Assembly (NCBI RefSeq): GCF_003010495.1
Contig: NZ_CP027570.1
Span: forward strand, 1,740,001-1,772,000
Direction of reading: 5' to 3'
Origin: Megasphaera elsdenii DSM 20460
Lineage (GTDB): Bacteria > Bacillota > Negativicutes > Veillonellales > Megasphaeraceae
DNA length: 32,000 nt
Shown piece after piece: positions 7,871 to 11,703 of this stretch; within the stretch, counting starts at the first letter, position 1, and every line of letters begins with the position of its first letter. Below the pieces are notes generated by a model. It saw only the letters and a list, made by a program, of their open reading frames with translations. It was not told the origin of the DNA and searched no databases. Made by a program: the position numbers and the translations under genes.

Positions 7871-8690
7871 CCCATTGATTTTGCAGGCCCTTCAGGAAGA
7901 CATTACGAGTGAAGACGTGACGACTAATGCCATTTTGCCGAAAGACTGTCAGGGTGAAGCGGAGCTCCTGTGCAAACAAGATGGCATCATTGCCGGCCTC
8001 GATGTCTTTGCCCGGGCCTTTACGCTGTTGGATGACAAGGTGTGGTTTGAATTCTTTACGAAAGACGGCGATGAAGTCCACAAAGGCCAGAAGCTGGCTA
8101 AAGTTGTCGGCAGTATGCAGGCCATCTTATCGGCCGAACGGGTAGGACTCAACTATTTGCAGCGCATGAGCGGCATAGCGACTTATACCCATCAGGTCGT
8201 ATCCCTGCTGGAAGGAACTGGGATTACCCTCGTCGATACGCGCAAGACGACGCCGAATATGCGGGTCTTTGAAAAATATGCTGTCACGGTTGGCGGCGGT
8301 AAGAATCATCGCTATAACCTGTCCGACGGCGTCCTCCTCAAGGACAATCACATCAGCGCTGCCGGTGGCGTAGCCAAGGCCGTTGCCTTGGCCAAAGCTT
8401 ATGCGCCTTTTGTCCGTAAAATCGAAGTCGAAACGGAAACGTTGGACATGGTCCGCGAAGCCGTCGAAGCCGGCGCCGACATCATCATGCTGGATAATAT
8501 GAGCCACGACATGATGAGAGAAGCGATAGCCCTCATCGACGGCCGGGCTGAAACGGAATGTTCCGGCAACGTGACCAAAGAAAATATTGCCGCCTTGGCC
8601 GATATCGGCGTCGATTACATCTCTAGTGGCGCCTTGACCCATTCCGCGCCTATCCTGGACTTATCCCTGAAACACCTTCATCGGATATAG
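7839..8690 (+). CDS. nadC: Nicotinate-nucleotide pyrophosphorylase (carboxylating)
   Basis: Motifs DTRKTTPNMR and HRYNLSD. I prefer ATG 7839 or GTG 7836 (GGGAG at 7824-7828) over the track start at 7812. Overlaps the nadB end. Confidence 0.88.
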   Translation: MNSVTMKLQADPLILQALQEDITSEDVTTNAILPKDCQGEAELLCKQDGIIAGLDVFARAFTLLDDKVWFEFFTKDGDEVHKGQKLAKVVGSMQAILSAERVGLNYLQRMSGIATYTHQVVSLLEGTGITLVDTRKTTPNMRVFEKYAVTVGGGKNHRYNLSDGVLLKDNHISAAGGVAKAVALAKAYAPFVRKIEVETETLDMVREAVEAGADIIMLDNMSHDMMREAIALIDGRAETECSGNVTKENIAALADIGVDYISSGALTHSAPILDLSLKHLHRI

Positions 8691-8760
8691 TGGCCCGTAG
8701 TTCGTGATTCGCAGTTCATGGCTCGTAGGGGCGACCACGTGGAACACCGTTTTGTTGCTT
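8688..8760 (+). repeat. Heptad array copy; the nadC stop codon is the first TAG of the array
   Basis: TAGTGGC CCGTAGT TCGTGAT TCGCAGT TCATGGC TCGTAGG GGCGACC, with CGT/CGC/CAT phased every 7 nt at 8696, 8703, 8710, 8717 and 8724. Confidence 0.8.
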
Positions 8761-8775
8761 GTTGCAATACATTAG

Positions 8776-8807
8776 TCCCTTGACAAGGGATGAAATAGCG
8801 ATATAAT
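8776..8807 (+). promoter_or_regulatory. Near-consensus orphan promoter
   Basis: TTGACA (8780-8785), 16-nt spacer, TATAAT (8802-8807). Perfect palindrome TCCCTTGACAAGGGA (8776-8790) spans the -35. Confidence 0.45.
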
Positions 8808-8816
8808 AGAATCAAA

Positions 8817-8863
8817 GAAAAGACAACGATGTCATGATTGATGTCGTTGTCTTTTCTGTTTTT
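8817..8863. terminator. Bidirectional intrinsic terminator hairpin
   Basis: GAAAAGACAACGA (8817-8829) / TCGTTGTCTTTTC (8844-8856), a perfect 13-bp stem. T-rich tracts follow on both strands. Confidence 0.7.
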
Positions 8864-8899
8864 GGTATTATCCGATCTTGAGAGGGGGCCTTCACATGT

Positions 8900-9130
8900 A
8901 TGTATGGCGAATGGAAAAGATTATGGCAGAAAATTTCCGCGAATGGAAAATGCTGCAGCAGTGTCAACTACTCCCGACTAAAGTCGGGAGCTTGTAAGTC
9001 GGAACTACATAGGTACTAACGACATCTAAAAGATGTCTTCCTAAATCCGCCTACATCATCGGGGGGGCTGACAACACCCGCTTTGCTAAGGAGTTTACTC
9101 CGAAGCAGTTGTTATTCTTTCATAACGAGG
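8900..9130 (-). ncRNA. Predicted TnpB omega-RNA (reRNA) region, spanning the tnpB 3' end and RE; extent is approximate
   Basis: Position follows established TnpB biology. Stem-loops seen on the element strand: GACATCT-N3-AGATGTC (9021-9037) and CTCCCGAC-N4-GTCGGGAG (8971-8990). Confidence 0.4.
8971..8990 (-). repeat. RE subterminal hairpin of the IS element
   Basis: CTCCCGAC-TAAA-GTCGGGAG, a perfect 8-bp stem. The loop and flank match the LE hairpin. Confidence 0.6.
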
Positions 9131-10321
9131 ATGGTTATCTCCGGAAATCCACATAGTTCCGAGGAGCTGAATATTCATAGCTCCGATACGGTCATCGTTA
9201 GATCTGTAACCACACTGGCAACGATATAAGTGTTTGTGATGGTCACGGTTTTCTTTGTGGATAGTACCGCATTTGGGACAACGTTGAGAGGTATACTTAG
9301 CAGATACCTTCAGAACTTCGGAACGATTTTCATGAGCCTTATAGGTCAGGAATTGCTCCAACTGATAGAACGCCCAGCTGCGCAGGTCGTAATTTTGTTT
9401 AGCCGTTTTTGAAAGATGGGACTCTTCGAAGCTAACACCGGTCAGATCTTCAAGCACAAACAGCGTATCTTTGCCGTATTTTTCAACGAGTGTCTTAGAA
9501 ATCTGATGGTTTACATCAGACATCCAACGGTTCTCTCGTCCAGAAATGGCTTTGAGTCTACGCTTTGCTGATTTTGTACCTTTAGACTGGAGCTGACGGC
9601 GGACTTCCTGAAATTTATGGCGTTTAGTAGCCATCTTCTTACCAGAGACGAATTCAGTTTTGCCCTGTTCGTCGTAACTAACAGTAAGAAAACGTAATCC
9701 GCGGTCAATACCGACAACATGACGGACGTTTTCTTTCTGAAAATCTTCGACAGCTTGGGTTACGGGAATGTGGAGATACCATAACCCTTTGAGTTCGACC
9801 AGTTTTGCTGTTCCAAGGTCATAAGCGCCATCAAGGTATTCAGCGAAATGTTCGCCCTCAAAAGTGCATTTGGTTCTTTTGCCGAGTGTATTGATAGATA
9901 GGATTTGACCATCATCAACGAAACTGTAATCTCGGTTACGGACCAAATCAGCTTGCGGACGAGTAAAGAATATCGGCTTCCAAAGCCATTCCAATGTCTT
10001 GGTAATGCGTTGCCAGTTGCCATTCTCATCCTTATATCTGTAAGGATTTTGGAAGAGCTGTTGTTTTACCGTTTTATATCTGGCAATCGTCGTCTTGATA
10101 GAAGACTGGGCTAGCTGCGATTTCAGACCGAACTGGCTGCGCAGGTCACTGTACAGCTCTCTGTTGAGACTTTGGTAGGTCATGTTAAATCGGTGGTCGA
10201 ATATGTACTGCGACACGAAGTTACAAGCCTGACGGTATTGTTCAGTCATCTGACGGAACAGCGTCTCTTGTTCGGGAGTAGCGTGTATACGAAGTTTTAT
10301 TGTTTTAGTTAGGTTAGACAT
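9095..10321 (-). CDS. tnpB: TnpB (OrfB_IS605) RNA-guided endonuclease
   Basis: 408 aa. RuvC D (VVGIDRG), E (FVLEDL) and D (NDDRIGAMNI) all present. Zinc finger CPKCG...CQCG. Confidence 0.9.
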   Translation of the reverse strand: MSNLTKTIKLRIHATPEQETLFRQMTEQYRQACNFVSQYIFDHRFNMTYQSLNRELYSDLRSQFGLKSQLAQSSIKTTIARYKTVKQQLFQNPYRYKDENGNWQRITKTLEWLWKPIFFTRPQADLVRNRDYSFVDDGQILSINTLGKRTKCTFEGEHFAEYLDGAYDLGTAKLVELKGLWYLHIPVTQAVEDFQKENVRHVVGIDRGLRFLTVSYDEQGKTEFVSGKKMATKRHKFQEVRRQLQSKGTKSAKRRLKAISGRENRWMSDVNHQISKTLVEKYGKDTLFVLEDLTGVSFEESHLSKTAKQNYDLRSWAFYQLEQFLTYKAHENRSEVLKVSAKYTSQRCPKCGTIHKENRDHHKHLYRCQCGYRSNDDRIGAMNIQLLGTMWISGDNHPRYERITTASE

Positions 10322-10365
10322 TTTTTCACCTGCCTTTCTAAAATCTATACTACTTCATCAAAATT

Positions 10366-10374
10366 ATTATATCA
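10366..10374 (-). promoter_or_regulatory. Extended -10 promoter element for tnpB
   Basis: Minus strand reads TGATATAAT (TGnTATAAT), about 45 nt upstream of the ATG. Confidence 0.4.
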
Positions 10375-10420
10375 TAATTTTTTTGCTAAAAGTCTATTAT
10401 TTATTATTGAAAGGAGGGGA

Positions 10421-10465
10421 GGTGCGGCTCCTCTCATGACTAAAGTCACGAGTCTCCGCCGCACC
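10421..10465 (-). repeat. LE subterminal imperfect hairpin of the IS element
   Basis: GGTGCGGC...GCCGCACC outer stem. Inner stem is CTCGTGAC-TTTA-GTCATGAG (element strand) with one mismatch. Confidence 0.6.
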
Positions 10466-10577
10466 ATAGTGATGAAAAGTATCAGAAAGGACGCCAAGCT
10501 GTTCAGCCTAAGAAAGAGAACCTGCGTCTCCGCGGCGGTGCCCATTCTGAAACGTGATGAAACTTAGAGAACACGTG

Positions 10578-10606
10578 TTTGACAAAAAGCCTCTGGATTT
10601 CTATAC
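10578..10606 (+). promoter_or_regulatory. mutY promoter
   Basis: TTGACA (10578-10583), 17-nt spacer, TATACT (10601-10606). Confidence 0.55.
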
Positions 10607-10644
10607 TAGTAGTTAATAGTGTAGAAAGAAAGAGGCTTATTTAT

Positions 10645-11703
10645 ATGGATATAAAGAAAGAACATTGGAGCCCGCTGCTCCTCGACTGGTTTGCCGCCCA
10701 TGGCCGGGACCTGCCCTGGCGCGATGAAACGCCGCGGGATCCGTATAAGGTCTGGGTCTCGGAAATCATGCTGCAGCAGACGAAAGTCGAAACAGTCCGC
10801 CCCTATTATGACAGCTGGATGGACCATTTTCCGACCATCTCCGCCTTGGCGGCGGCTTCTCAAGATGAAGTCCTGCGGCAGTGGCAGGGCTTGGGCTACT
10901 ACTCGCGGGCCCGCCATCTCCACCAGGCCGTCCAGGAAGTACAGGCCAAATACGGCGGCCACGTGCCGGAAAATAAAAAAGACGTGCAATCCTTGAAAGG
11001 CGTTGGTGATTATACAGCCGGCGCTATTTTAAGCCTGGCTTATGGACAGAAAGAACCGGCTGTCGATGGCAACGTCCTGCGCATCTTTGCCCGCCTTTAT
11101 GATATTGAAGAAAATATCTTGTCGACACCGGTCAAGAAGAAAGTCACAGCTCTCGTCGCAGAGCAACTTCCGGACGAAGCGCCTGGAGCCTTTAACGAAG
11201 CTCTCATGGACTTAGGAGCTATGATCTGCATCCCTAAGCATCCCCGCTGTCCCTACTGTCCTTTACAAGAGCTCTGCCTGGCTCATCGGGCTGGGAAAGA
11301 ATGTGAGCTGCCCATCCGCCTGGTCAAGAAGAAATCGCCTGTCGAAGATATTACTGTCGTCGTCGTCCGTAAGGGGAAACAGTGGCTCGTTCATCGCCGG
11401 CCGCCGACGGGCCTGCTGGCGTCGATGTGGGAATTTCCTAATGCCCAGGGGAAAGGGGAGGAAGGCCTGCATGCTGTCGGTCAGCTCTTGGCGCAGAAAG
11501 GACTGACCCTGGCTGCCGATGACCAGTCCATAGGCTCTCTGAAGAGCGTCTTTTCGCATAAGACCTGGCAGATGACGATTTATGAAGGTCGCATCACCCA
11601 GGGAAAACTCGAAGAAGAGGAGGATTGGCAGTGGATCGACTGTAAAGCTTATGCGTCCTTGCCCTGGGCCGGGCCGCATGGCAAGATTACTGCCATGGTA
11701 TAA
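10645..11703 (+). CDS. mutY: A/G-specific adenine DNA glycosylase
   Basis: HhH-GPD region and 4Fe-4S loop CIPKHPRCPYCPLQELC, with a C-terminal NUDIX-like domain. I prefer ATG 10645 (AAGAGG RBS) over the track start, which lies inside the promoter. Confidence 0.88.
   Translation: MDIKKEHWSPLLLDWFAAHGRDLPWRDETPRDPYKVWVSEIMLQQTKVETVRPYYDSWMDHFPTISALAAASQDEVLRQWQGLGYYSRARHLHQAVQEVQAKYGGHVPENKKDVQSLKGVGDYTAGAILSLAYGQKEPAVDGNVLRIFARLYDIEENILSTPVKKKVTALVAEQLPDEAPGAFNEALMDLGAMICIPKHPRCPYCPLQELCLAHRAGKECELPIRLVKKKSPVEDITVVVVRKGKQWLVHRRPPTGLLASMWEFPNAQGKGEEGLHAVGQLLAQKGLTLAADDQSIGSLKSVFSHKTWQMTIYEGRITQGKLEEEEDWQWIDCKAYASLPWAGPHGKITAMV

Follow-up and report, generated by a model that had tools for sequence, protein, structure and literature searches.

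A predicted non-autonomous TnpB/omega-RNA element of the IS200/IS605 family in Megasphaera elsdenii

Introduction

Between nadC and mutY of Megasphaera elsdenii DSM 20460 lies a tnpB gene that is flanked by two similar hairpins and has no transposase gene (tnpA) beside it. The locus belongs to a stretch of 32,000 nucleotides (positions 1,740,001 to 1,772,000 of contig NZ_CP027570.1, here called the window) and raises the question of what kind of element it represents and how a TnpB protein is kept where a working transposase appears to be missing. We assign a probability of about 0.82 to the reading that positions 8963-10471 of the window (minus strand, 1509 bp) are a non-autonomous, tnpB-only (IS1341-like) TnpB/omega-RNA element of the IS200/IS605 family, one of seven intact copies, which would work as in the mechanism proposed below. 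This reading is carried by the boundaries of the element, its transposon-adjacent motif (TAM), its copy number, the purifying selection on TnpB, a conserved RNA structure and the fold of the protein.

Ends, target motif and empty sites

The genome surveyed is complete and consists of one contig of 2.48-Mb. It contains seven intact copies of the element, which are 95-97% identical, and one decayed copy of 79% identity. The left end (LE) and the right end (RE) of the window copy comprise the following features:

10472..10476, minus strand: TAM or target motif TTCAT, host DNA just 5' of LE, kept in the empty sites.
10421..10465, minus strand: LE subterminal hairpin, outer stem GGTGCGGC/GCCGCACC, inner stem CTCGTGAC-TTTA-GTCATGAG.
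8970..8991, minus strand: RE subterminal hairpin GCTCCCGAC-TTTA-GTCGGGAGT, which doubles as the last helix of the RNA scaffold.
8963..8967, minus strand: end motif TTGAC, the transposon-encoded right cleavage site and last 5 nt of the element.

In a multi-copy alignment including the flanks, conservation begins directly after TTCAT on the left (LE end at 10471) and stops after ...TAGTTGAC on the right (RE end at 8963). Furthermore, the nadC-mutY interval lacks the element in four related species, in which 10472 is joined directly to 8962. Here, ACTTTTCAT continues directly into ACTGCTGCAG... (ACTGCTGCAGCATTTTCC...), so that the junction reads TTCAT followed by ACTGC with nothing duplicated. 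The alignment and the four empty sites therefore fix the ends, the insertion point on the 3' side of the pentanucleotide TTCAT and the lack of a target-site duplication, the latter two being features of the IS200/IS605 family. Empty sites were also found for a second own copy (c3) in three congeners; the flanks of copy c2 are not conserved in the five genomes searched for an empty site. The target motif is highly constant, as TTCAT stands in front of all seven intact copies and of 21 of the 22 insertions in the genus; only the own degenerate copy c8 has TTTAT instead. The same holds for TTGAC, which is terminal in 7/7 own copies and in 45 of 49 related loci from about a dozen genera.

Both hairpins are built around GACTTTAGTC and lie within the element, 6 nt and 7 nt from its ends. 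Folded as single-stranded DNA, the LE hairpin forms two tiers (outer stem 10465-10458/10428-10421, inner stem 10452-10445/10440-10433; -15.1 kcal/mol, z = -4.3), and the RE hairpin forms a stem of 8991-8983/8978-8970 (z = -3.5). Each copy contains the non-palindromic core GACTAAAGTC two times, both on one and the same genome strand. Such same-strand subterminal hairpins at both ends, together with the absence of terminal inverted repeats, again place the element in the IS200/IS605 family. In other element subtypes the RE hairpin is replaced in a compensatory manner. Non-coding DNA amounts to 150 nt upstream and 131 nt downstream of tnpB, all of it conserved as LE and as scaffold/RE. Four further GACTTTAGTC sites in the genome were considered and discarded; they lie in ordinary, coding-looking sequence and their number is near the chance count estimated by hand (about 5 for a 10-mer).

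The original prediction, made from the letters of the window, had held that the TAM, the guide and the exact ends could not be fixed from a single copy. This no longer applies, since the seven intact copies, the degenerate copy and the empty sites fix all three. The hairpins that it had placed at 10421-10465 and 8971-8990 agree with the DNA folds within 1 nt, and as the multi-copy alignment locates both of them inside the element, its assignment of the ends stands. The empty nadC-mutY sites confirm these ends as well as TTCAT, and the statement that no tnpA is present within the element was upheld.

The TnpB protein

The single gene of the element is the following:

9095..10321, minus strand: tnpB, 408 amino acids (aa), with the RuvC residues D206, E291 and D377 and the zinc-finger residues C348, C351, C368 and C370.

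The protein is identified as a TnpB by its Pfam and NCBIfam matches, its catalytic residues and its predicted fold. The matches exceed the gathering scores for PF07282 (Cas12f1-like_TNB, 68.6 bits vs. 26.3) and PF01385 (OrfB_IS605, 42.3 vs. 30.5), and NF040570 ("RNA-guided endonuclease TnpB family") is matched over residues 8-385 with 214.7 bits at a cut-off of 100. The open reading frame (ORF) contains all the motifs that had been named beforehand, namely the aspartate, glutamate and aspartate of GIDRG (D206), LEDL (E291) and NDDRIG (D377), and the CxxC...CxC zinc finger in the form of CPKC and CQC. D206, E291 and the four cysteines do not vary among 53 homologs of 28-60% identity, and D377 is conserved to at least 90%. 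In phmmer alignments, the catalytic residues coincide with GVDMG, MEDLTG and NAD of solved Cas12f chains.

The AlphaFold2 model has a predicted local distance difference test value (pLDDT) of 94.3 and a predicted template modeling score (pTM) of 0.87. Its full-length Foldseek matches are AsCas12f (template modeling score, TM, 0.70-0.72), OsCas12f, the TnpB proteins of ISFba1 and ISDra2 (8h1j, query-based TMq 0.65) and Fanzor2. The TnpB/Cas12f fold, the split RuvC D-E-D triad and the zinc finger are thus all present, and the protein is a candidate RNA-guided nuclease.

The predicted omega-RNA and its guide

The region from the 3' end of tnpB through RE contains the following features:

8963..9111, minus strand: omega-RNA scaffold core of seven helices, from RNAalifold, pair counts and a covariance model.
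Helices, minus strand: 9111-9108/8968-8965; 9107-9098/9093-9084; 9080-9075/9065-9060; 9055-9046/9003-8993.
Helices, continued, minus strand: 9043-9040/9013-9010; 9037-9034/9024-9021; 8991-8982/8979-8970.
8943..8962, minus strand: predicted guide, the first 20 nt outside RE, ACTGCTGCAGCATTTTCCAT, starting at 8962 and running downward (ACTGCTGCAGCATTTT...).

An alignment of the final 270 nt from 23 elements (own copies and those of congeners, 75-98% identity) was folded with RNAalifold. This revealed 67 pairs, of which 18 show compensatory changes. Furthermore, 96% of the cells are paired, in contrast to only 38-45% when the 3' partners are slid, and none of 500 column shuffles reaches the observed values. 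The well-supported helices lie between 9111 and 8965 and start just 17 nt before the stop codon; synonymous variation is not suppressed in the last 40 codons of tnpB. The long stem GGAACUAUGUGG/CCUAUGUAGUUCC of the single-sequence minimum free energy fold was rejected, as it is not a conserved pairing and the alignment favors 9055-9046/9003-8993 instead.

A covariance model of the core (R1) matches 51 of 65 related loci from public genomes. All of these matches lie on the tnpB strand, start at the last codons of the gene and abut its 3' end, and they extend to relatives of 57-70% protein identity in metagenome-assembled genomes labelled Synergistales, Ligilactobacillus and Erysipelotrichaceae. 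In the R1 alignment of 50 sequences, which is fitted to the model and hence biased towards it, 34 of 45 pairs are compensatory and 96.2% of the cells are paired, vs. 37-43% when slid. In its conserved structure and in its position, which overlaps the 3' end of tnpB as well as RE and places the guide beyond RE, the region corresponds to a TnpB system. Therefore, 9111-8963 is predicted to be the omega-RNA scaffold, conserved and strongly covarying.

As would be expected of a guide, no two copies share the flank immediately beyond RE. TTCAT plus the guide of the window copy is exactly the empty allele in three congeners and differs from it by one mismatch in the fourth. Within the own genome, TTCAT followed by the first 16 nt of the guide was found nowhere for any copy, so that there is no self-target. 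Solo copies of scaffold/RE or derivatives resembling palindrome-associated transposable elements (PATE-like) were likewise absent, as an nhmmer search with the scaffold core matched exactly the seven tnpB-linked copies.

An omega-RNA reaching from the tnpB 3' end through RE had been proposed before at a length of about 200 nt. The location stands and gains a conserved, covarying structure, while the length has to be corrected to a core of about 150 nt (9111-8963). The stem-loop noted at 9021-9037 corresponds to helix 9 of the conserved RNA, and the placement of the predicted guide just outside RE fits the unique flank of each copy.

Copies, selection and spread

The 408-aa frame and every catalytic motif are intact in 7/7 copies of the group of about 95% identity. 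For these seven copies, a mean pairwise ratio of non-synonymous to synonymous substitutions (dN/dS) of about 0.10 indicates purifying selection at dS values of 0.09-0.31. The copies are hence old relative to each other, yet each seems to have been kept functional. The eighth copy, c8 (G000:C1:1416144-1417403, locus L008), is degenerate with 79% identity, a longest frame of 232 aa, the TAM TTTAT and a scaffold region that cannot be aligned beyond the stop codon.

Copy c7 (G000:C1:466095-467655, locus L007) resembles the other copies in tnpB and scaffold (95% identity). Here, both the LE and RE hairpins are exchanged together for another type (ACCT...AGGT), which is the type present in most relatives. 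This coordinated swap suggests that the end hairpins are exchangeable modules. With respect to replication (dnaA and the minimum of the skew at about 0.85 Mb, its maximum at about 2.28 Mb), the seven intact copies are distributed 4:3 over the two strands, and a strand bias was rejected.

This is a very common family, of which thousands of near-identical proteins exist. Relatives share 97% protein identity in Mitsuokella and 85-90% in Selenomonas, Acidaminococcus, Dialister and Anaerovibrio. Mitsuokella jalaludinii, which we take to belong to a different order from Megasphaera, carries five loci (L066-L068, L109, L112) with 96-97% protein identity to the Megasphaera element. Such near-identical copies imply, on the basis of their sequences, recent horizontal transfer and indicate that the family probably moved horizontally among gut and rumen Negativicutes.

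Which transposase could move the element?

A Y1 HUH transposase able to move the element was not found in this genome. The sole full-length Y1 gene is an IS200-type tnpA (G000:C1:766044-766403; locus L009 1400-1935, minus strand), which contains an in-frame TAA (...FWCRGY, stop, VDTVGKYEGAIKEYIRNQ) upstream of the KEYIRNQ tyrosine region. By analogy with TnpA of IS200/IS608, the catalytic tyrosine presumably lies after this TAA, and the gene is probably a pseudogene. The remaining Y1 matches in the genome are fragments only, located at 88 kb. Because no TnpA is encoded inside the element and the Y1 gene of the genome is broken, the element appears to be non-autonomous, as is typical of the tnpB-only group.

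In addition, 36 genomes of the genus were scanned for Y1 genes and the resulting loci were searched for the ends of the element. In four congeners, the 21-nt LE inner hairpin recurs without any change on the 5' side of a tnpA (L045 in G049; L063, L039, L060). Two of these loci, L045 (1100-3100) and L063, are complete IS605 elements with a tnpA of 155 aa (1186-1653 in L045) and an unrelated tnpB of 437 aa, and they also carry the RE core CCGACTTTAGTCGG. The GACTTTAGTC hairpin type thus corresponds to this IS605 TnpA element of the congeners. Neither the congener element nor its TnpA is present in the genome of the window. On the shared hairpin cores, the congener TnpA is a candidate trans-mobilizer.

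The congener IS605 element has the TAM TTGAT and the end ...GTTCAC, compared to TTCAT and ...GTTGAC in the element studied here. At either end of each of the two elements, the base located 4 nt 5' of the hairpin foot is the complement of position 3 in the motif. This pairing would fit the DNA-guide rule of IS608 and ISGst, as far as can be judged from two element types only.

Proposed mechanism and alternative explanations

The mechanism is drawn from the paradigm of ISDra2, IS608 and ISGst, and its framework is that of Meers et al. (2023; 10.1101/2023.03.14.532601). The left end would drive transcription of tnpB, and one feature may be part of this:

10366..10374, minus strand: possible extended -10 element TGaTATAAT for tnpB, from reading the sequence, kept in most copies.

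The last ~150 nt of the element (9111-8963) would fold as the omega-RNA scaffold, and read-through past the right end would yield an RNA with a guide of 16-20 nt that derives from the flank (ACTGCTGCAGCATTTT...). Equipped with this RNA, TnpB would cleave TTCAT plus guide, a sequence present only where the element is missing, which is either the joint of an excised donor or an empty allele. If the break were then repaired with an occupied copy as template, the element would be restored or would spread. The two GACTTTAGTC hairpins would serve as recognition sites for a Y1 TnpA acting in trans. Cleavage, homing and trans-mobilization are thus expected by analogy with these systems. Since no working Y1 TnpA is present in the genome, the element would be immobile here at present, while TnpB stays under selection.

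Several points weigh against this reading. Without a functional TnpA, the excision that creates the target of TnpB cannot occur in this genome now, and the dS values between the copies show that there was no recent burst. TGaTATAAT does not appear in the output of the consensus promoter scan, which gave no convincing promoter, and expression of both the RNA and the protein is what we infer from related systems. For the RNA itself, helices upstream of 9111 show wobble-compatible changes only, which leaves its 5' end undefined; the pair count of the R1 alignment carries the bias already mentioned; and an Rfam scan of 8000-11500 at E <= 1 returned two chance-level eukaryotic matches and no known RNA family.

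Some of these points would also suit a stranded relic, i.e., a genuine IS200/IS605 TnpB element that is dead in this genome, being immobile, with TnpB and omega-RNA unexpressed or inactive, and has simply not decayed. The lack of a functional Y1 TnpA in a complete one-contig genome, the missing strong promoter match, the age of the copies relative to each other and the fact that c8 is already a pseudogene would all agree with it. On the contrary, seven of the eight copies keep the full 408-aa frame and the catalytic motifs at a dN/dS of about 0.10, and the RNA scaffold has been kept with compensatory changes. Furthermore, intact copies of the TnpB family persist in congeners in which no Y1 gene was found (G018 and G020, 99-100% complete; G003, 88% complete). 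We therefore regard a dead relic as improbable.

The same purifying selection in genomes without TnpA, together with the conserved nucleotide block within the gene described below, could be taken as a sign of domestication, in which protein and RNA serve the host, e.g., in RNA-guided repression as by TldR proteins or in other regulation. However, TldRs are nuclease-dead, whereas the D-E-D triad is intact in 7/7 copies, which are located at variable, unrelated sites and each have a flank of their own to serve as guide. Transposon ends delimit the element, the same site is empty in congeners, the guides match only empty-site alleles, and its presence in several orders with up to 97% identity is typical of a mobile element. 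A host function is thus very unlikely.

That the GACTTTAGTC hairpins are merely RNA or terminator features and that the mover is not a Y1 TnpA but, e.g., an IS607-type serine recombinase is hardly credible, since despite the double use of the RE hairpin as last scaffold helix and the absence of TnpA, the LE hairpin lies upstream of tnpB and is no part of the omega-RNA. Furthermore, from one subtype to another the hairpins of LE and RE change jointly, the same cores flank Y1 tnpA in congeners, and it is a Y1 signature to insert 3' of a fixed pentanucleotide and to leave no duplication.

Comparison with known systems

As far as it was tested, the TnpB/omega-RNA element proposed here agrees in type with those known from Geobacillus stearothermophilus and Deinococcus radiodurans. 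Among its closest counterparts are ISGst2-5 of G. stearothermophilus, which are IS200/IS605 elements with tnpB or iscB only (Meers et al., 2023; 10.1101/2023.03.14.532601). In common are the multiple copies, the lack of an internal tnpA, subterminal hairpins, a pentanucleotide TAM (TTTAT or TTCAT in ISGst) and an end motif, as well as an omega-RNA at the tnpB 3' end, a guide outside RE and the reliance on a TnpA encoded elsewhere. In contrast, G. stearothermophilus has a working TnpA in the same genome, whereas here this gene appears to be a pseudogene and the matching TnpA type was seen only in other species. Protein and RNA also belong to a different lineage, and the Megasphaera element is known from its sequence alone.

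The TnpB/reRNA system of ISDra2 from Deinococcus radiodurans (PDB 8h1j, 8exa) likewise has a protein of 408 aa, with a Foldseek TMq of 0.65 to 8h1j (E 4.5e-13), and shares the D-E-D and zinc-finger layout, the 5-nt TAM 5' of LE and the guide 3' of RE. In contrast, ISDra2 has its own tnpA and the TAM TTGAT. Its TnpB is too dissimilar in sequence to be listed by phmmer at E <= 0.01, and unlike in ISDra2, the scaffold described here lies almost wholly downstream of the stop codon.

The best solved relatives are Cas12f proteins (AsCas12f, 8j12/8dzj; OsCas12f, 9nzq), with a sequence E of 6.5e-18 and a full-length fold TM of 0.70-0.72. The Megasphaera TnpB is thus closer in sequence and fold to Cas12f than ISDra2 TnpB is. 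Nevertheless, it is not a Cas12f system: there is no adjacent CRISPR array or tracrRNA, the gene lies within transposon ends, the guide would be the flank and not a spacer, and the match to NF049972 (Cas12f2) reaches 97.9 bits vs. a cut-off of 450.

Finally, IS608 of Helicobacter pylori shares the same-strand subterminal hairpins and the insertion 3' of a short target without duplication. A covariation of the cleavage sites with bases on the 5' side of the hairpin foot, too, seems to be common to both, since in the two element types compared the third position of the TAM and of the transposon-encoded motif (TEM) pairs with base -4. In contrast, IS608 is autonomous (tnpA and tnpB) and has the target TTAC.

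A conserved nucleotide block inside tnpB

An extra feature of this TnpB lineage lies within the gene, about 520-580 nt upstream of RE:

9485..9540, minus strand: nucleotide-conserved block in tnpB, codons ~261-279, with invariant ACGAGAGAACCG and AAGACACTCGT flanking a hairpin at 9520-9514/9508-9502.

The diversity of synonymous codons is flat along tnpB, except for a trough at codons ~256-285, which was seen in 16 sequences as well as in a set of 33 dereplicated ones. In the 33 coding sequences (dereplicated below 95% identity), the entropy in the trough is 0.55-0.66 vs. about 1.2 elsewhere. Invariant or near-invariant codons (Arg CGA, AAC, ACA, CTC) make up ACGAGAGAACCG and AAGACACTCGT, and the block is conserved in 33 sequences, down to 57% protein identity. 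The 7-bp hairpin is paired to 92%, vs. 13-41% when slid, and shows one C-G to G-C swap, which in six distant sequences involves a switch of the serine codon family and a change from Gln to Cys.

Three explanations for the block were discarded. In many relatives, stop codons interrupt the antisense ORF at 9416-9571; complementarities of 7-mers to the 5' untranslated region or the scaffold are at chance level and show no covariation; and neither a consensus scan nor reading by eye recognized a sigma-70-like promoter on either strand. Our literature search found no paper on TnpB in Megasphaera, nor on an internal promoter or element in tnpB. Rather tentatively, the block may be a cis-element of this lineage that has not been described before, either a signal for the processing or the start of the omega-RNA or an RNA site to which TnpB binds for autoregulation. 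Taken together with the purifying selection in TnpA-less genomes and the swap of end hairpins between 95%-identical copies, this could mean that TnpB/omega-RNA modules persist and renew their equipment without being tied to a particular transposase, a view that we put forward as a speculation.

The host site

The insertion interrupts a small candidate host gene:

8911..8962, plus strand: 5' part of a host ORF of 45 codons split by the insertion (MEKIMAENFREWKMLQQ, then Y...).
10472-10557, plus strand: 3' part of the same ORF.

The ORF (MEKIMAENFREWKMLQQYEKYQKGRQ...) is interrupted in codon 18 of 45, and two congeners have it uninterrupted at their empty sites; NCBIfam contains no match to it. 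A 12-nt repeat, GCGAATGGAAAA, lies beside RE at 8907-8918 and 8939-8950, within this ORF. It was rejected as part of the element, since the empty site of one congener contains both repeat copies, one of them with a mismatch, which are therefore host sequence. Downstream of nadC and before the small ORF, a strong terminator-like hairpin of 19 pairs followed by a T-run is present at 8816-8857 of the window (plus strand).

Conclusions

The element between nadC and mutY is an ordinary member of a very large and well-understood family. It nevertheless represents a fully specified compact TnpB system, with a protein of 408 aa, a predicted scaffold of about 150 nt, the TAM TTCAT, the end motif TTGAC and natural targets. 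Furthermore, it is a clean natural case of a TnpB under selection in a complete genome without a working TnpA, which bears on the role that TnpB may have after the loss of the transposase.

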